The notes beneath the pieces are model-generated. The model saw nothing but the letters and a program-made list of their open reading frames with translations, had not been told where the DNA came from and did not search any database. The translations under genes were made by a program, and so were the position numbers. A stretch of DNA of 64,000 nt from contig OZ024743.1 of NCBI GenBank assembly GCA_964016885.1, forward strand, positions 215,326,001 to 215,390,000. The letters run 5' to 3'. This DNA is from Eledone cirrhosa. Taxonomy: Eukaryota. Position 1 is the first letter of the stretch, and each line of letters starts with the position of its first letter. Below are positions 2,615 through 56,355 of this stretch, piece after piece.

Positions 2615-4072
2615 AATAATAACGATAATAATAATGATTTCTTTATTAAACACAAGGGTTTAAATAAGGTAGACATTAAAGACAGTGCAGGACAGTACAG
2701 GATGGTACAAATGGGCATTTCTGCGTGTAAAAAAACAGAGGATGTAATAAAAAAAATAACAATGAAAAATTCCCCAATAGGGGGGAGACTTCCGAGGGAC
2801 ATTTGTGGAGAAAGCCCATTAAAAAGGCCACAGTGACCCTGACCACCAGGGCAAGTGCCCTCTCCCAGTTTTTCACCTAGGCCTTCTGCCCTCGACGATT
2901 ACGGTGAGGTGGCTGCCGTCAGTGAGGTCTATTACCTCTGGGATCTCCTCAATTCTTTTTTGGTCCGCTTGGATCAAGAGCTCCATCCCAGATCCGGACC
3001 AGTTCTCCTGCTTGTCTTTCGTTATTTCGATTATCTTGGTGTTGGCTTCGATGCCAGCGCGGACGGCAGCTATTAGCCAGGGAATTTCGATGGCCGGTGG
3101 AACGTGGGGCACCCTGATCTTCACGAGTCTCTGGCCACAATATCTTGGGACGAGTGTGAAGTTGTCACTTCTTAATGGGGCCATGGAGTGTTCTCTGGCC
3201 TCCTGTGGTGTTTCAAAGCACACGCCTGATGTGGGTTTTTTAGCCCACACATGTCCTAAAGCTTTTTGGATTTGGGACTCGGATGCCCGTTCCACTCGGC
3301 GCGATTCTATGTTAATCGTCCGATAAGACACGGTGCATAGGCGCCGATGCTCCATTTTATTAGGTGGGGTGGATGAGGCTGACCCTGTACCCATCTATCT
3401 TTACCATTTCTTTGGCTTCTTCAAATTCTTCCTGATTTACCTGGAATGCTTCGCAATGTTTTGCTACTCTGGCAAGACTCAGGATGGTTTTCTTAATTTC
3501 ATTGTTGTTGTTGTTGTTATCGTTATCTTTGTTATTGTTAATTTTTGTTTCAGTTGTTGTGGTGGTGGCGTCAGTGGTGTTCGGTGTGGAAGAGTTCATT
3601 TTGGTTGAATTCATTTCCATATCACGAGTTAATTTATTTTTTTCTTTTGTTTCTGTTGTCGCTGTGGTGGTGGTGGGGGTGGTGGCTTTAACACCTGCAG
3701 TCATTGGTAATAGCGGGAAATGAATGTCTGCATGAGACAAATAAAAAATATTGGTACTGCTTATATTTTTTATGTTGGCAAACGTAGTAATATTTACAAT
3801 GGTGGTGTCGGTGTGAGGTGTTAGTTTGTGAGGAAGCTGTGACTGTGAGTCAGCCATGATTTTTTTCAAATACATTTGTGTTTGATAATTATAAAAGTTT
3901 AAATTTTGGGCTCAAGGTCCCAATCTTTTTGATTGTCCTTTTCAGAAAACAATGTATGTGCACTTATATACAGTTAACAATAAAAATGTTACCATAAATG
4001 GCAATTTTACACAATTGAAAGCAACAAACCTTTGCGGAGCTCACGATGATACGATTTACTACGTAGGTCGCC
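2615..4072 (-). mobile_element. Internally deleted second Tx1 copy: 5'UTR and ORF1 N-half fused to a 3'UTR with AATAAA and (ATT)n tail
   Basis: 2875-4072 aligns with 1375-2614; 2615-2874 read on minus ends ...tttAATAAAgaaatcattattattatcg. Confidence 0.8.
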
Positions 4073-4099: not shown

Positions 4100-6540
4100 A
4101 CGAAACGAGAGGAGATTCAGACAGATGAGACAGAACCGCATGTTTGACAACAAACTAAGACATTCTGGAGAGGAATATGGGAGCAGGATGTTAAACATAA
4201 TGACCAGGCACTGTGGATTGAGTCAGTAGAAAAGGAGATTAGTGGACAGGCACACCAACAAACTGATTTGAGTATCACAGTTGAAACTCTTAAGGGGCAG
4301 GCCAATAAATAACCAACTGGAAATCACCAAGCCCAGATTGTGTGCAGGGGTATTGGATTAAACATATAACATCCCTTCACCCGAAACTGACAACCATGTT
4401 CAATGACTGCTTGATGTCAGGTGAGGTACCAGAGTGGTTGACAAAAGGTACCACAGTTCTGGTAATGAAAGACCAAATCAAGGGTAATGATGTTACCAAC
4501 TATAGACCTATCACATGTCTGTCCGTAATGTGGAAACTGTTGACAAACATTGTGTCTGAGGAAATCTACCATCACCTCCACAAAAACAACTTGTTACCGG
4601 ACGAACAGAAAGGATGCCGAAAGAAGTCCCCTGGTACAAAGGACCAGCTACTTATTGATAAGATGGTAATGAGGAATTACCAGAGGAGACACACTGGCCT
4701 TGCCATGGGATGGATAGACTACAAAAAGGCATTTGACATGGTGACTCATTCTTGGATCACCAAAAGCCTAGAGTTCTTCAAGGTGGCAGATAACATCAGA
4801 CAGTTGTTGGAGAAAAGTATGAAGTCCTGGAAAACAGAGTTACCATCAGCTGGAGAATCCTTGGGAGGCGTGAAGATCAAGAGAGGTATCTTCCAGAGAG
4901 ATAGTCTGTCCCCTCTGTTGTCTGTCCTTGCCCTGATGGCCCTGACCATTATACTGCGAAAAGTGAGAGCAGGATACAAATTGGGAAAGGGAGAGCTTAC
5001 CAACAATCTCCTCCTCTTCACGGAGATCTTAAGCTCTTCGGGAAGAGTGAGAAGGAGTTGGATGTGCTTGTTGACACTGTCCGTATTTTGAGAAATGATA
5101 TATGTATGCAATTTGGTATTAGTAAGTGTGGAGTCCTTGTGATGAAGAGGAGTAAATTGAGCAGAAGCAACGGAATCCAGGTGAGATGACAAAGCAAATT
5201 GACACTGAAGACGGATACAAGTATTTGGGTGTTCTGGAGGTTGATGACATCAAGAACAAAAAAATAAAGGAATTGATAAGATCTGAATACATTCGGAGAG
5301 TAAAGAGCGTATTAAAGTCACATCTGAACAGTAGGGATGCAATAAGTGCAGTAAATTCCCGAGCTGTGTCTATTATTAGGTACAGTGCGGGAATTCTGAG
5401 ATGGAATGTTGCTGAACAAAAAGAAATGGATATCAAGACGCGGAAGGTTTTGACTATCTACAACATGTTCCACAGGTGGAGTGATGTCGATAGACTTTAC
5501 TTAAGGAGATCTGAAGGTGGAAGAGGTCTTATCAGCATTGAGGACTGTGTTCAAATGGAGAAAAACAACCTACACAAATACGTGACTGATAGTAAGGTGC
5601 CAATGCTCATAATTGTACTGAAGGAGAGGTCAATAGACCAGGGGATATCCAAGGAGGAAATAACAAGAAGAAAGAGCAGCCTTCATGAAAAAATCCCTTC
5701 ATAGTACCTTCTTTGAGAAAACTGAATTCAGAAATCCACAGACATGGAACTGGTTGAAAAGAAGAGACCTTAAAAAGGCTGCAGAAGGAATGCTAATGGC
5801 TGCGCAAGAGCAGGCCCTCAAAACGAAGTGGTTGAAACACCATATTTACAAGGAGGAGGCTAGCCCACTGTGCAGGATCTGTGGAGAGAGAGAGGATACT
5901 GTGGCTCACATTGTGTCCGAGTGTAAACACCTAGCCCAGACTCACTATAAAGGCTGGAGACATGATGTGATGGGCAGGGTGATCCACTGGCACCTATTCA
6001 AAGTAAACAATCTACCACATTCTGAGAAGTGGTATGAACATAAGCCAGAGTCGGTGATAGAAAACGATCAGGTGAAGGTGTTGTTGGATTTTAGGATACA
6101 GACGGACAAGAAACTGGAACACAATAGACCTGACCTTGTGGTTTTGGATAAGGAAAAAGATCGTACCTGATTGTGGATGTGGACTGCCCATTCGACCCGA
6201 GAGTGCAAGAGAAGTAGAGGGAGAGAATTAACCGATACCAGGACTTAAATTGGGAGGTAAAAAGGATTTGGAACTGCCATGAATTCAAAGTGGTCCCGAT
6301 TGTCATAGGCGCACTAGGTATTACCTCAAAAAGTTTCCAGGGATGGTTAAAGAAAATTGGCCCCGCACCGCTTTTTGGAACGCTTCAAAAGGCATGTCCT
6401 GAATATCTGAGGCTGCAGGTAGTGGCTTGATATTCATTTCAACAATCTTTCCAGTTAACTAACATCAATGACTGAGACTCAAAGAAAAATAATAATAATA
6501 ATAATAATAATATTAATAATAATAATAAAAAAATAATAAA
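4100..6540 (+). mobile_element. R4/Dong-clade RLE non-LTR retrotransposon, 5'-truncated, degenerate
   Basis: RT fragments 4342..5091 and 5186..5704 (NYRPITCL, WIDYKKAFD, GIFQ.DSLSP); CCHC and RHD, PD-LV RLE motifs in 5685..6170; (TAA)n at both ends; highly similar to 53890-56350. Confidence 0.92.
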
Positions 6541-7107
6541 CATAGCGTGAGAGCCCGTGCATAATATCTAGGCGGATGTATCTGTCACATACTCTCTCCT
6601 CAGTTATGAGTTCAAAATTGATGTTAGTGTTTTGTCATTTGGAGAACAACATTAACCAGATGACTTCGAATAATCATCATCACAATCTTCATGATCGATC
6701 TCCCATAACTAAAACAACCGAGAAACACAATATAATGTCGTTGGTTTAAAGGCCAGAAACACGTGTTTGTGAAAACTGTAAGATGGTGTATTAGGCATTA
6801 TACCACATCTTCCTATGAACTCTCTACAATTGAACAATCAATGAAATTCTCACGATGCTAATATGTTTGCTTTAGGAATTTATACTCTTGCTTAGAAACA
6901 TGTCATAATCTGCCTATCCTGAAACATAGCTTAGACGTTACCACTCTAAATGCAAATGAAAATTAACCCATATTTACTTTCTGACATATAACGGCCAACT
7001 ACGAATTCAAAACCAACGGTCCTATATTATCTAGCATGTCAACCATCCATATAATTGACATATACACTCTGTTTTGTATAAACTGCGGATTCTACTTAAT
7101 CGCCATT

Positions 7108-7361
7108 TAATGCACTGGGATAATTGCTGGCCTTGTGCCAAGCGTAGAAACAATTATTTAAATAGCGGTGAATTGGCAGTATCGGTAGAGTGTTGGACGT
7201 CATGCTTAATAGCATAGTTACGTCCCTTTATGGTCTGAGTTCAAATGCCGTCGAGGTTAACTTTACCTTTCATCCTTACGGGGTTGATAAAATAAAGTAC
7301 CAGTAATATACTGGGTAATTTCTGGCCTTGTGCCTAAAGTAGAAACAATTATTTAAATAGC
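7108..7361 (+). mobile_element. tRNA-derived SINE (7165-7350) preceded by a 3' fragment of the same family
   Basis: A-box-like tggcagtatcgg, B-box gagttcaaatgcc; shared tail gataaaataaagtaccagt...ggccttgtgcc.aaagtagaaacaatt; TSD attatttaaatagc. Confidence 0.8.
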
Positions 7362-8460
7362 ATTATATAAATATATTTTAAATATTGTAAGGCAAGAAAC
7401 AGGATTCACAATATATGAAACCACGGAGCTCGAGATAAATTGGCTAATTTTATTAATATACATTTTCTAATGGCTAGGATATGTGTCGTAGTTACTGACA
7501 CTGTTATTACCAGTAGGTAATGCTATAAGTGCATGTAAGATGTTATCTGGTATGCGGTGCATAATGGACTGAGGAGCTATTTGTCTTCCGGGTTTTCTAG
7601 TGGAATGCAATAATGATATTCTCTACCTGGAGTGTATTGAATAGATTGAACACGAGGCAAGGACAACTTTCCTGTTTTCACATTTTTAATTCCCGTGGAC
7701 TATGGAAATTTGGGTTGTTCGAGCTCATGATTAGGCCACACTAGTGTATTTTTCACCATAACCTAAACATAATATGAACCCATAAATCTACAGAAGAATA
7801 GGTTTCTTAAACAGTTACTTTCATTTGTAAGTAATTGTTTACTTATTAAATGACTACCTACGTTATAATTATAACCATTTACTTTTATATCTCTTTATAA
7901 CTTTCTTTACTTTTTATTGTTTTATTTATCCATTATATCTATTTTTACGATTATTTACCGCTGGTTTCATTTATTTATAATCCTTATAATCACAAGAAGA
8001 TCCCATTTTAGGTCATTTACCGTGTCAATAACATTGTTTACGGTCAGGGATTTTCACAGCTATAACACATTATGGCGTTCCCCTGTTAAATATAAAGGAT
8101 CACTATGAGACCACATTGCATAGTATTGTCGAATGTGAAGTATACGGAGCTAATCTATCACTGAAGACGCAATGACAGATGGACTACATCCGTATACATT
8201 TTTTATTTATATTTTGCAGTAATCCAGTAATTGTTTACATAAACATTAACTCATTTAGGTTAATTACACCTGATGATGTTGTCATTTTTTTACGACAACA
8301 TTTGATGACGTGGACCAGTTGGCTACAGACATACATATCGTAATTTTGCAAAACTAAAAGAATATTTATTTGAAAAGCCAAAAAATCAGAACAAAATATA
8401 TATATATTTTTTTGTTTTTTTTTGCAAAACTAAAGGAAAAAAAAGACAATATATATATAA

Positions 8461-10812: not shown

Positions 10813-11835
10813 TTAGCCGTTTCTTTATATTCCGCGTAAATCCCGCCTACGCCACCTGGGGATACCATCGTTCCGAGATCAAGTAAAGTACTTGCTTGAT
10901 ATATTCGAATTTCCACTTCACCTTAATAGGTATATTTATATATATAATGAAAGAGAGAGAGCGAGAGGGGGTGGGGTGATACGTTTTTGTATATATATAT
11001 ATGTGTGTGCGAGGGTAGTTATTAATTCTATCTGTGTTGTTATTAATGGATATATATAATTAGGAAATACAAGAAAAAAAAACCATTTACCAGTTTATAT
11101 GTGATAATAAATGCAAGAATTTAAGTGTTCACAGGAATATGAGTGTTTATATGCACATATGTATTATACACCACCAGTAATCTTGAATAAGTATATTGCA
11201 TTTGCATAGATTATATAGGGTAAATGAGTAAATGCCTAACACGTTCAATGGTAATCCGGATGAATTGTGACCTTTTTATGGAAATAAGAATAAAGTCCAT
11301 TAGGTGACAGCCATTTACAGCTTCCTATATAATTTTGACGGTTACTGTGAAATATTACGGAATATTCATTCATTGAATTTCAAAAGGATTATTTCAATCG
11401 TAACAAAAGTTTATTTCCTGCTGTCAGCACCTTTTCTCAAAATAACCACGTATGAAATGTAAGGTTTTAAGACTGATATACAGTCGGCGTAAATATGAAG
11501 AAGCTGGCAAGATGTGTTTCTTAACATACAATTCAAATGATACTCCAATGCTTTCAAAATAGCATATGTTACAATTAAAGAAATCTTGACAACCGGAGGA
11601 TACTTATAATCTTACTATATTACCCTTCTACGGTTAGGCACGCAAACAATCATTCACGCGAACACACATATTACAAACACTCCAAACACATATATACACA
11701 TTAAGGTATAGAATACATGTGTATTTGTCTCTCTGTGCGAACATATATGGATGCATATACAATTGTGTTATCACACAAGCACACATATCCATATGTATAT
11801 ATGCGTATGCATGTATATACGATTATGCATCTTTG

Positions 11836-11867
<32 letters not shown>

Positions 11868-12174
11868 TTAATATAGTAATGGCTTTTAGAGGACTAGTGA
11901 TATTTTATTGAGAAGATTTCATCTGGAAATGTATTGAGTACCTTACTAACTGTTGTTAACTTCGATATGGAGAAGCCACTTCGTAACCCTGACTCTGAGC
12001 TTTCTCCACATATGACCCTATGAAGTAACCATGTTAAAGAATTTACATTCTGTTTGTTTATATTTCATTATATTCTCTCTTTCTTACAAATCTGAGCACG
12101 AGAGGAAACAGAATATGTTTATTTAGAATAAGTGCTTTTATTAACGGTAAGACATGTCAGAACAAATCTGACTG

Positions 12175-12619
12175 TCAACTATATTTTTTCAATATGTTAT
12201 TGCTATTACGACTATCAACAATTATTAGTATCCAACTCTGGAATTGATCTCTGACTGGATTGTAAACAATAGATAACAATATGTTCATCGTATCAAGTTA
12301 ATTTGCTGTAGCCATTTACGTCCAATTGTTTAGTTTCCAAAAGTAAATTAGCCTGGTTATGCGAATATTATTTAGTGTTATCAACTATTATTCTTTATCA
12401 GAGTGATAGTTGATAACTCTAAATAATATTCGCATAACCAGGCTAATTTACTTTTGGAAACTAAACAATTGGACGTAAATGGCTACAGCAAATTAACTTG
12501 ATACGATGAACATATTGTTATCTATTGTTTACAATCCAGTCAGAGATCAATTCCAGAGTTGGATACTAATAATTGTTGATAGTCGTAATAGCAATAACAT
12601 ATTGAAAAAATATAGTTGA
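12175..12619. repeat. ~213-bp near-perfect inverted repeat with ~17-bp spacer
   Basis: 12175-12388 is the reverse complement of 12406-12619 with about one mismatch. Confidence 0.97.
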
Positions 12620-12700
12620 TAAAATAAAGTACCAGTAATACACTGATAATTGCTGGCCTTGTGCCAAAAGTAGAAACAATTATTCTTTATCAGAGTGATA
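12615..12700 (+). mobile_element. 5'-truncated SINE tail with 22-bp TSD
   Basis: gttgataaaataaagtaccagt...gtagaaaca; TSD attattctttatcagagtgata at 12387-12408 and 12679-12700. Confidence 0.9.
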
Positions 12701-14061
12701 TAGGCTTATCACTAAAGATAAGTTGCTAATTTTAGTGTTTCCTAGATATTTCGTATATTAAGCAAATGTTTGGCCATTAAGTTCAAAGATTAAAGTTTCA
12801 AAAATACATTAATTAGCTGCCAGTTGTGCGTTAGTGAGAGAGGTAATCACGATCGACTGACATACGGCAGATGCTGGATTTGAATTATTCGTACCTTTAT
12901 ATAAGACATCTTTTGTTCTAGATTATTCTGCTATTATTTATAGATAATTACATTCTGCTATTTTGTAAATGAGTTAATGTATTGTCAAATTCCGAATTTT
13001 CGCAAATGTTTCTTGAATGTTATATACACATGTATATAAACAATGTGTGCTTTGCATATATAAACATGGATATATGACGAGTTGTGATACAGTGTCGAGA
13101 AATGGCTATCCTAATCGCATCTTAACCTGATCGATATCGAAGTATGTTAATTAACTAAATAAATTGTATACTTGATGCAAGCTTCAAATTGTTCCTGCTG
13201 CGTTAGGTCTTAGATATACGGAAGTATATAACTTACACGTAACATACACACATACATGTACACATACACACATACATATACATATATGTATGTATATTTA
13301 TACATATATATAGCTTTTTTGTGTAACCATATATGTACTTTTCTGAAGAAATCTATGCTTCAGTTACTCTTGAAATCAGGAACAGTTATGATGCGAGTAA
13401 TTCCTTTCGCAGTACAAAATAACCAATTATCAGATTGTTGCTTATAATTGGCGATGTTATTAGAGTTCACAAGATCTTTATTGAAATAGTTATATTTCAA
13501 AGTATTTATTCTCGTTATGTTTCATCAATCCTTTGCTTCACTGATTTTAAGATAGAATATATAGCATGTTTCAATGCACAAGTATTGTCTTGTATCTTCC
13601 TTAAATACTTCATTGTATTTTGTTTTATATATTTTCAAGTAACAAGTCAATCTTTTCTTTCAAGTTAGCACTAGATTGGAAACGAAAATTTCATATTTTC
13701 ATATCTTATTTTCTATATTTTTCTGTTTTATTTTAATAATTTTCTCTTTAATAAATTATCAGATTTATTATTCCTGATTTAGATCTTGACTTTCTTCTCT
13801 ACTTTCCATTTCTACCCACCAACAAATATTCTAAAGGAATTCATAGTTCTTAGTTATTTATGTGGATGTTATTTTTTCTGTGACCTCGAGATTACCTATC
13901 GTTTTTGTCGGTATTATCAATAATATTATTCTTCATGTAACAGGTTTTGTTTATGTTGGTGTCATATATTTTTTATTGCTTTCATTGCTGTTATAGTTAT
14001 TACATGAACGACGAAAATAATAATAATGATAATGAAAAAATAGTATTGTAATTATTATTAT

Positions 14062-32423: not shown

Positions 32424-32739
32424 CATTCACACACACGCACACAATCATATAAATAACATCCGCACGCATATACTCCCGCTCTGCATACGCACCAAAGAGA
32501 AACCATAAAACTATAGACATATGCGTCCACAGATGCCGCCCTACATGCCCACGTACATCAACTCACACATTCACACACGCACACAGATGCATACGCGTAT
32601 ATCTACTCGTATACACAAACAGGTAGAGACGTATACAATGACACGCACACGCACATACACACATGTGTCCATATATACAGGCACAAAAACAGACTCGCTC
32701 GCAAACACACACACGTATATATATATATATATATATATA

Positions 32740-33123
32740 TTAATAAGAGGAATTCCAACTTTTTCTGATTTACTCGTTTTATTTACAATCCTCTAAAATA
32801 TATAATGGTATTATAATGAAATAGTATGATAGAATATTAAATTCTAAGTGTTAATTGAACAAGTACGTTCATGCTTTCGCAATCTTCAGGTTCATAATAT
32901 GTGGTGACAGTCGAGTTTTCAATTTTCAACTGTTGAAAATTGCAAACTCGACTGTCACCACATATTATGAACCTGAAGATTGCGAAAGCATGAAAGTACT
33001 TGTTCAATTAACACTTAGAATTTAATATTCTATCATACTATTTCATTATAATACCATTATATATTTTAAAGGATTGTAAATAAAACGAGTAAATCAGACA
33101 AAGTTGGAATTCCTCTTATTAAT
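32740..33123. repeat. ~380-bp zero-spacer palindrome between (TA)n tracts
   Basis: arms of ~190 bp, apex ttttcaac-t-gttgaaaa at ~32931, few mismatches. Confidence 0.97.
32968..33006 (+). ncRNA. Minimal type I hammerhead ribozyme, intact core
   Basis: tgaac CTGAAGA t tgc-gaaa-gca t GAAA gtacT T gttca: stem I tgaac/gttca, GNRA-capped stem II, palindromic stem III AGTACT. Confidence 0.85.
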
Positions 33124-33172
33124 ATTATCTTCTATACACAATCATACATACCCGTGTATATCTACCTATCTA

Positions 33173-52850: not shown

Positions 52851-55800
52851 GATAAGAGTGTTTAAATGTCGAACCTAAACAGTTCGAATAACGGTGAAAT
52901 GGAGACTAGAACGTCATGTGACAGACTCTCACCAAACAGGTGCTCCCTGGCTCAGCAGCAGGGACCTGGCTGTCAACCAAATACTGCTGGTGTCGGAGGA
53001 AGAAGAAGAAGGAAAGGGACCAGAACCAACTGGACGAAAGAATTGAATAGAACTGTTATGCAATGTTACCTGAAAAGTAACCCCAAGGAGAGGGGCTATA
53101 GGAAACGGATGCATAACATCTGGCACGAGATTGGTCTATTTAAATTAGATGAACAACAATTGGCCGGGCAGGCTCGGTTAATAAGAACTAATGGGTGGAT
53201 AAGCGAGCTGGAACTGGAGGAACTGAGCAGAGAGATTAGCTTGGAGATGGAGGGTGGATATGCCAGGCAAACGAGCCAGTGGGAAATGAAGGTGAAGAGG
53301 TCGAGAGAACGGAGGAACCACCCGAAGCAGACAATGATCTGAATACTGAGATAAATAATACCTGGAACAGAGATACGGCCACTGAGGAGATGAATGCTGA
53401 CGGGCTAGGACAAGATTTGGTTGACATCCTAAATTTAGTGGTAGATGAATTGAACAATGATAGTGGGAGACCTATGAACCTAAGATTTGTAGACAGGAAA
53501 AAGTTAAAAGAAACAACAGCTAAGGTAAATAAAATCATCGCATACCTTGAGGCGAGGAGCCTTCACCAGTGCAACAATATCCTCAAAGCAACAGTAAATA
53601 CGGAGAGGAAACTACTTGGTATAAAAGCGAGAGGAAACAACAGACAAGAAAGAGGAGAGCCTTGGTGGAAGAAACGACTGAGTGGTCAAATCAGGGAAAT
53701 GAGAAATGACATAGGAAAGCTTGAGTCCCTACTGAATGGGACACTGAAAAACATAGACACTAAAAATAGACTGAAAATAAAGTACCATACTGGGAGCAAA
53801 AGGCTAAATATTATCATAGAGGGACTGAAGCAATGCATTGTAGCAAAGAGTGCAACAATCAGGTGATACAAGAACAGAGTCAGTCAGTATAAACAGAACC
53901 GCATGTTCGACAACAACCAGAAGATGCTGTTTGGACAGCTTGAGGGGAAAGAAAGTGGCAACGACTTGATCCCTGAGGCGGAACAAACTAAAACATTCTG
54001 GAGGGGAATATGGGAGCAGGATGTTAGACATAATGACCAGGCAGAGTGGATTGAGACAGTACAGAAGGAGATCGGTGAACAGGCACACCAACAAACTGAT
54101 TTGAGTATCATAGTTGAAACTCTTAATCTTAAGGGGCAGGTAAAAAAACTAACCAACTGGAAATCACCAGGCCCAGATGGTGTGCAGGGGTATTGGATTA
54201 AAAATATAACATCCCTCCACCCGAAAATGACAACCATGTTCAATGACTGCTTGATGTCAGGTGAGGTACCAGAGTGGTTGACAAAAGGTACAACAGTTCT
54301 GATAATGAAACACCGAATCAAGGGTAATGATGTTACCAACTATAGACCTATCACATGTCTGTCCGTAATGTGGAAACTGTTGACGAGCATTGTGTCTGAG
54401 GAAATCTACCATCACCTCCACACAAACAACTTGTTACCGGACGAACAGAAAGGATGCCGAAAGAAGTCACGTGGTACAAAGGACCAGTTACTTATTGATA
54501 AGATGGTAATGGGGAATTGCAGGAGGAGACACACTGATCTTGCCATGGGATGGATAGACTACAGAAAGGCATTTGACATGGTGCCTCATTCTTGGATCAC
54601 CAAAAGCCTGGAGATCTTCAAGGTGGCAGATAACATCAGACAGTTGTTGGGCAAAAGTATGAGGTCCTGGGAAACAGAGTTGACATCAACTGGAGAATCC
54701 TTGGAAAGCGTGAAGATCAAGAGAGGTATCTTCCAGGGAGATAGCCTGTCCCCTCTGTTGTTTGTCCTTGCCCTGATGCCCCTGACCAATGTACTGCGAA
54801 AAGTGAGAGCAGGATACAGGTTGGGAAAGGGAGGGCTTACCATCAACCACCTCCTCTTCATGGACGATCTTAAGCTCTTCGGGAAGAGTGAGAATGAGTT
54901 GGATGTGCTTGTTGACACTGTCCGTATTTTCAGCAGTGATATATGTATGCAGTCTGGTATTAGTAAGTGTGGAGTCATTGTGATGAGGAGGGGTAGGTTG
55001 AGCAGAATTAACGGAATCCAGATACCAACAGGTGAGATGGTAAAGGAAATTGACTCTGAGGAAGGATACAAGTATTTGGGCGTTCTGGAGGCTGATGGCA
55101 TAAAGAACAAAAACATGAAGGAATTGTTAAGAACTGAATACATTCGGAGAGTAAGGAGCGTGTTGAAGTCACATCTGAACAGCAGAAATGCCATAAGCGC
55201 AGTAAATTCCCGAGCTGTGTCTATTATTAGGCACAGTGCGGGAAATCTGAGATGGAATGTTGCTGAACAAAAAGAACTGGATAGGAAGACTAGGAAGCTA
55301 TTGACTATCTACAACATGTTCCACAAGAGGAGTGATGTCGATAGACTCTACTTAAGGAGATCTGAGGGTGGAAGAGGTCTTATCAGCATAGAGGACTGTG
55401 TTCAGATGGAGAAAAACAACCTACACAAATACGTGACTGATAGTAAGGAGCCAATGCTTAGAGCTGTACTGAAGGAGGGGACAATAGGCTAGGGGATGTC
55501 CAAGGAGGAAATATCATCAAGGAGAAAGAGCAGCCTCCAGGAAAAATCCCTTCATAGAGAAAACTGAATTTAGAGATCCACAGACATGGAACTGGTTCGG
55601 AAGAGGAGACCTTAAAAAGGCTACAGAAGGAATGTTAATAGCTGCGCAAGAGCAGGCCCTCAAAACGAAGTGGTTGAAACACCATATTTACAAGGAGGAG
55701 GCTAGCCCACTGTGCAGGATCTGTGGAGAGAGAGAGGAGACTGTGGCTCACATTGTATCCGAGTGTAAACACCTAGCCCAGACCCACTATAAGGGCTGGA

Positions 55801-56355
55801 GATATGATGTGATGGGCAGGGTGATCCACTGGCACCTGTGCAAAGTAAACAATTTACCACATTCTAAGAAGTGGTATGAGCATAAGTCAGAGGCGGTGAT
55901 AGAGAACAATCAGGTGAAGGTGCTGTGGGATTTTAGGATACAGACGGACAAGAAACTGGAACACAATAGACCTGACCTGGTGGTTGTGGACAAAGAAAAA
56001 AGATCGTGCCTGATTGTGGATGTGGCCTGCCCATTCGACACGAGAGTGCAAGAGAAGGAGAGGGAGAAAATTAACCGATACCAGGACTTAAAGTGGGAGG
56101 TAAAAAGGATTTGGAACTGCCATGAATTCAAAGTGATCCCGATTGTCATAGGCGCACTATGGAGTATCTCAAAAAGTTTCCAGGGATGGTTAAAGAAAAA
56201 ACAGCAAGAACCCTCCGATACGTCCTGAATATCTGAGGCTGCAGGTAGTGGCTTGATATTCATTTCAACAAACTTTCCAGTTAACTAACATCAATGACTG
56301 AGACTCAAAGAGTAATAACAATAATAATAATAATAATAATAATAATAGTAATAAA
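52774..56355 (+). mobile_element. Near full-length R4/Dong-clade RLE LINE, inactivated
   Basis: single ORF from 52866 broken into 52866..53342, 53279..53866, 53903..55492 (RT, LFMDDLKL), 55632..56228 (CCHC, PDL..IVDVACP RLE); N-terminal WTKE.N...CY...GYRKRM..IW motif; (TAA)n tail. Confidence 0.95.

Follow-up and report, generated by a model that had tools for sequence, protein, structure and literature searches.

A SINE insertion in Eledone cirrhosa with an inverted copy of its upstream flank inside the TSDs

Introduction

How does the insertion of a short retroelement come to hold, between its two direct repeats, a long inverted copy of the host DNA beside it? The question is raised by a locus in Eledone cirrhosa, an animal with a genome of 3.0 Gb. 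The locus lies in a stretch of 64,000 nucleotides, called the window throughout (contig OZ024743.1 of assembly GCA_964016885.1, positions 215,326,001 to 215,390,000, forward strand); positions are those of the window. A sequence-only reading had described the locus as a SINE insertion that built a palindrome from its own flank by folding back the top strand, and had implied that this was new.

The novelty does not hold, as both the structure and the mechanism are already in print for human L1, in the passages covered of PMC10191854 and of bioRxiv 10.1101/2024.12.14.628481. The former describes the “foldback inversion” 5' of the target site in three cases, with a further one combined with twin priming (0.3% and 0.1%), and reports 52–220 bp of extra synthesis. 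The preprint of that paper (10.1101/2022.05.18.492429) proposes, in the part covered, that the cDNA primes copying of the bottom strand. The second study shows an L1 insertion accompanied by an inverted duplication on the reciprocal end (Fig. 4A, D, E) and, in the passages covered, explains it by resection, self-annealing in a small hairpin that has 2 bp of homology, and primed synthesis, with the TSD kept. The locus is a clean new example, not a new mechanism.

Results

Anatomy of the locus

The locus is set in AT-rich, non-coding DNA (GC 0.29), and a coding reading was rejected, the longest stop-free frame in 11001–14000 having just 81 codons. The palindrome that had been described is real, except that the inverted repeat is 214 bp long instead of 213 and has a single mismatch (12376/12418), with 12175–12388 pairing with 12406–12619. 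The stem extends for another 6 bp into the TSD, with two G.T pairs, and ends in a 5-nt loop (12395–12399); folded as RNA, the palindrome has a z of −53. A known miRNA or structured RNA family was rejected as well, as none of 21 Rfam matches reaches its cut-off (best match 47 bits against a cut-off of 95).

The inverted flank copy and the SINE tail are enclosed by an exact 22-bp direct repeat, as had been claimed; its left copy forms the palindrome centre and its right copy follows the SINE tail (Table 1). For the 16 TSD bases beyond the tail-like ATTATT, a chance repeat within 1500 positions has a probability of about 1e-6. The proposed microhomology at the TSD end is also there, in that ATA (12406–12408) belongs to both the left TSD and the inverted copy. 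The 65-bp SINE tail of the earlier reading corresponds to 12620–12684; alternative bounds are 12615–12678, or 12615–12684 if the ATTATT shared with the TSD is counted (64–70 bp). Relative to the predicted empty site, the insertion amounts to 292 bp, made up of 211 bp of inverted flank, 59 bp of further SINE sequence and one TSD copy.

Table 1. Features of the locus, in window positions
Feature	Positions	Strand	Evidence or remark
Candidate polymerase-stop ssDNA hairpin (10-bp stem, one bulge, 5-nt loop)	12151–12176		3' foot is the outer end of the copied arm; folding energy
Left arm: unique flank upstream, the original that served as template	12175–12386	+	Genome match only to the two arms
Left TSD, 22 bp, palindrome centre; last 3 bases (ATA) also in the inverted copy	12387–12408	+	Crossed by short-read contigs 12346–12448 (X1–X3)
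Inserted inverted copy of 12175–12385, 211 new bases, one mismatch at 12418	12409–12619	−	Reverse-complement match
GTTGA overlap of the inverted-copy end and the SINE 5' truncation point	12615–12619	+	5 nt only if the donor was a minor variant
3' tail of 5'-truncated, abundant ~190-bp SINE; its final ATTATT (6 bases) is shared with the right TSD	12615–12684	+	Genomic copies
Right TSD, 22 bp, same sequence as the left one	12679–12700	+	Contig 12663–13220 in X1–X3

The arm is single-copy host DNA

It is scarcely credible that the palindrome is a MITE, a Penelope-type fold-back element, or a fold-back artefact of assembly or long reads. Multicopy fold-back elements are common in this genome, and the word search used here gives nothing for very common words (four common SINE tails had no return), both of which speak for an element of this kind. 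Against it, the arm yielded one candidate with two matches, namely the two arms themselves, and no match was found in 1.78 Mb of random stretches. That a candidate was returned at all, by a tool blind to very common words, argues for low copy. These two genomic matches dispose of the multicopy MITE that had been named in advance as what would refute the reading, and the outer ends, which have no TSD, led to rejection of a MITE or TIR element in general. Rejected too was twin-priming 5' inversion, as the inverted segment is flank DNA and not derived from element RNA.

Further evidence came from three short-read contig sets (X1–X3), which derive from one sample, possibly the assembly's own. In all three, a 103-bp contig (12346–12448) crosses the palindrome centre without differences, at a depth of 10, 12 and 7 compared to 10.1, 10.7 and 7.5 in the right flank of X1, X2 and X3, that is, at the single-copy level. 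The arm contig is 1.3–1.5 times deeper, where 1.4 is calculated for a doubled arm with 31-mers, and this depth corresponds to two copies of the arm. In addition, the centre is found in short-read contigs in which the mismatch occurs in both its versions. The crossing of the centre at single-copy depth argues against a long-read fold-back artefact. Among the contigs listed none spans the joint of arm and SINE, and neither an empty-site joint nor a loose end appears; since contigs can drop variants, the missing empty-site joint no more than suggests that both chromosomes carry the insertion. Two read sets from RAD sequencing (X4, X5) have no coverage here.

Short-spacer palindromes as such are abundant, with 299 having arms of at least 15 bp in the random sample of 1.78 Mb. 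Seventeen are long and near-perfect, and 16 of the 17 are ends of multicopy elements; the single-copy arm is unlike these, and a Penelope-like inverted pLTR insertion was rejected on this ground. The long near-perfect palindromes are mostly found beside (TA)n runs, and the window is also palindromic at 32737–33125. At another locus (L169, about 767–1030), an 18-bp direct repeat, an adjoining 18-bp inverted copy and a perfect palindrome with 103-bp arms are nested in a multicopy element.

The SINE and its relatives

The element is a 5'-truncated SINE with an ATT tail and a preserved exact TSD, hence a non-LTR insertion. With 12612–12686 as query, 40 genomic copies, these being the ones scored among 982 candidates, are 96–100% identical, and for the tail the identity to them is 97–100%. 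It is part of a repeat of roughly 190 bp, whose TSDs typically begin with ATT repeats (30 loci, window included). High copy number, TSDs and the simple-repeat tail make it a candidate tRNA-derived SINE. A/B-box-like motifs were judged by eye against the consensus, and ARAGORN found no tRNA in locus L031. In 178 random ten-kb stretches there were 219 copies with their 3' end, a density of about 123 copies per Mb, which extrapolates to about 370,000 copies genome-wide.

GTCGA is the usual sequence of the SINE copies at the 5' joint; GTTGA is the variant present in 7 of the 29 close relatives and in 13 of the 154 copies sampled at random. The proposed sharing of GTTGA between inverted copy and SINE is therefore correct only if the donor was of this minor variant; otherwise 4 of the 5 bases agree, with 2 exact terminal bases.

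Several other arrangements were seen around this family. Two tails that do not belong to the SINE have a similar loop (L187, L223). The window contains two LINE copies (4309–6540 and 52866–56354), which have reverse transcriptase and zinc-finger matches and end in (TAA)n/(AAT)n runs; the RT-coding LINEs of the window were rejected as the partner of the SINE, their 3' ends being unlike its tail. Two related ORFs on the minus strand (943–1467 and 2873–3911), one with a CCHC-like knuckle and both without a Pfam match, are possibly remnants of LINE ORF1. In L004, L026, L027 and at 7100–7370 of the window, SINE copies form head-to-tail piles in which they sit in one another's ATT tails and TSDs. 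In L187 and L237 (random) and in L027 (targeted), the 5' end of the SINE is adjoined by an inverted piece of that element's body. These pieces repeat the sequence of the forward part, as snap-back of the cDNA would give, and amount to 2 events in 193 random copies. L016 resembles ordinary twin priming, and L025 (about 1690–1870) has a nested inverted duplication with a perfect palindrome of 25-bp arms between two oppositely oriented SINE heads.

The event recurs but is rare

The sequence-only reading had proposed counting the SINE tails that follow an inverted flank inside their TSDs. This was done on a sample, by a TSD-anchored screen that allows one mismatch and recovers the index locus. There were no cases among 201 random SINE copies or among 96 copies in targeted loci, which for the random set places the 95% upper bound on the rate at 1.5%. 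Controls gave one reverse-only and no complement-only match. Copies too near a stretch end were left out (219 reduced to 201), 97 of the 201 had an upstream exact repeat of at least 10 bp, and the screen is blind to old copies whose TSDs have decayed. An arm-anchored screen agrees, with none in 95 targeted copies and one in 193 random copies (L161), the latter rejected as a microsatellite palindrome outside its TSD. Three candidates from a 1-Mb screen (L116, L041, L153) were likewise rejected, their inverted repeat lying outside the TSD or running past the SINE. A family-independent screen gave 106 raw matches; apart from the index locus, none of the 45 listed once length filters had been applied combined a SINE tail with a flank copy.

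A second, short case was found among similarly truncated copies, for which there were 545 pattern matches. From the 100 listed, 20 loci were picked by hand so as to avoid ATT repeats and were viewed over 400 bp each, at least 4 of them turning out to lack the truncation. The second case is one of these 20 (L244; G000:C1:112353142-112353541, minus strand). Its 21-bp TSD, made of a TA run, is self-complementary and is followed by an inverted flank copy of 12 bases, another, partial round of copying and then the SINE tail, which is joined through a 4-base overlap. From none in 201 random copies and one case in L244, the event recurs but is rare.

A probable single event, and three routes to it

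The inverted duplication and the SINE insertion were very probably one coupled event. The copy begins within the final 3 bases of the left TSD, which is where the 3' end of the top strand would lie, and this ties it to the insertion. Alternatively, an ordinary SINE insertion could have come first, with a later template switch or break repair swapping its 5' part for an inverted copy of the flank. The abundance of short-spacer palindromes speaks for such a two-step origin, but the switch must then have landed by chance in the last 3 TSD bases, and the arm is unique where the long near-perfect background palindromes are nearly all multicopy; we regard the two-step origin as highly improbable.

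For a single event, three routes yield the same sequence: fold-back synthesis, copying of the bottom strand primed by the cDNA, and a ligated hairpin opened at 12175. We lean towards the first, in which the free end of the top strand folds back and copies its own strand. Of the fold-back during TPRT that had been proposed, the coupling is well supported by a copy that lies inside the TSDs and starts in their last 3 bases; the direction is preferred here and unproven.

Under fold-back, a LINE enzyme would nick the bottom strand at ATTATT, and reverse-transcribe about 65 nt of SINE RNA. The cut in the top strand would fall about 22 nt further on, and the bottom strand on the left would be resected. 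The resulting 22-nt 3' overhang would then pair weakly with itself, ATA on TAT at 12386–12388, aided by an imperfect 9-bp stem, and a repair polymerase would copy the single-stranded top strand leftwards until stopped by the template hairpin at 12151–12176. Finally, the new end would be released, pair with the cDNA over GTTGA or GA, and be filled in.

In favor of fold-back, the inverted copy runs from the last 3 TSD bases to the truncation point of the SINE, and the TSD overhang can pair in the observed register (a 9-bp stem, 2 of its pairs being G.T, closed by a 5-nt loop). Consistent with this, the TSD of L244 is self-complementary and its flank shows repeated rounds of copying. Against fold-back, the observed register has an energy of +0.6 kcal/mol at 37 °C versus −1.2 for another hairpin of the same TSD, and a 5-nt overlap with the SINE requires the minor donor variant.

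A hairpin at the outer end of the copy

No ssDNA hairpin in the 460-bp flank (11930–12390) is stronger than the one at 12151–12176 (−6.6 kcal/mol), whose 3' foot coincides with the outer arm end. Of 600 matched sites drawn at random, 1 had an equally stable hairpin at 37 °C, as did 3 of 600 at 15 °C; the link was spotted by eye, post hoc, and then tested, and concerns one case only. A polymerase going left on the single-stranded top strand would meet this hairpin exactly where the copy ends, which favors fold-back over the published cDNA-primed model. The hairpin is also compatible with a structure-specific nick, and could postdate the event or stem from it.

In the cDNA-primed route, the 3' end of the cDNA would pair with the bottom strand at 12175–12179, copy rightwards to the first nick and join the overhang through ATA. 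This direction is that of the model in 10.1101/2022.05.18.492429, as far as that preprint was covered; if synthesis ran off at the nick, the match between the inner end of the arm and the left edge of the TSD would be accounted for, and no weak hairpin is needed. The route requires duplex invasion 211 bp away on 2–5 matching bases and offers no simple reason for a hairpin just outside the copied tract, and we consider it unlikely, though the strongest of the rivals.

In the ligated-hairpin route, the folded overhang would be ligated to the bottom strand and the hairpin cap nicked at 12175, such that the old bottom strand becomes the arm and the gap is filled. A loss-free join is allowed by the ambiguity of the junctions (TSD end 12405–12408, nick 12385–12389), a nick at the base of the 12151–12176 structure is plausible, and hairpin cleavage forms part of the published L1 model in the passages covered of bioRxiv 10.1101/2024.12.14.628481. 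The same passages ascribe inverted duplications to priming and inversions to cleavage, and the two successive inverted-copy rounds in L244 suggest synthesis, leaving ligation decidedly improbable.

Discussion

The locus has the features of a foldback inversion: a non-LTR tail with its TSD kept, inverted host flank between the left TSD and the element, and short homology at the inversion junction, where there are 3 exact bases and an energetically weak stem. As in the L1 cases covered in PMC10191854, a TSD is combined with an inverted duplication of upstream host DNA at the 5' end (211 bp here), and the rarity is alike (0.3–0.4% in human L1, none in 201 random SINE copies here). The difference is that those cases are somatic and human, whereas the present one is a SINE copy, apparently inherited and homozygous, in an invertebrate. 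The L1 model in 10.1101/2024.12.14.628481 is the same mechanism as the top-strand fold-back of the sequence-only reading; the passages covered describe two examples, from cultured cells and tumours, and contain no rule for where the copy stops. All published foldback cases, in the parts covered, were made by L1 ORF2p, while the element here is a SINE.

Related events occur elsewhere. Yeast double-strand breaks give local foldback inversions (PMC11724301), which in the passages covered share hairpin-primed synthesis, release of the nascent strand and end joining with a 0–5 bp overlap. Unlike the present locus, they arise without a retroelement or TSD and are mostly 5–34 bp long, some exceeding 150 bp. 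The 5' extra nucleotides of the zebrafish ZfL2 LINE (PMC4245944, PMC4760211) are likewise flank-templated bases at a non-LTR 5' junction; they comprise several nucleotides, and no long inverted arm is described in the passages covered. A literature search, made mostly without subscription papers or supplements, found no instance of the same layout in SINEs or the germline, and the term “foldback” is absent from PMC12016303.

What is new is the SINE as host element, the apparent inheritance, the invertebrate setting, L244 as another, smaller case, and the hairpin where the copy stops. The locus shows that a side reaction described for a few somatic human L1 insertions occurs with a SINE in a distant animal too, apparently in heritable form. 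This bears on how the second strand and the 5' end of non-LTR insertions are resolved, where the two papers that describe the structure propose, in the parts covered, opposite directions of copying. The locus keeps clues to this at the level of single bases, in the self-pairing TSD end and the template hairpin at the stop point, and the roughly 370,000 copies of the SINE could yield enough cases to decide the direction.

The structure itself is likely a by-product of how the insertion was repaired, with nothing that points to a function, and the single locus is non-coding without any sign of one. It is a tentative and rather doubtful extension that SINE insertions seed heritable palindromes of host DNA, with the arm length set by hairpins in the resected flank. 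If this were true, the human rate would predict about a thousand palindromes among the SINE copies, and the upper bound as many as about 5,000. Where transcribed, they would supply long and perfect double-stranded RNA, and they would form a large natural data set for deciding between the two published models of 5'-end joining.
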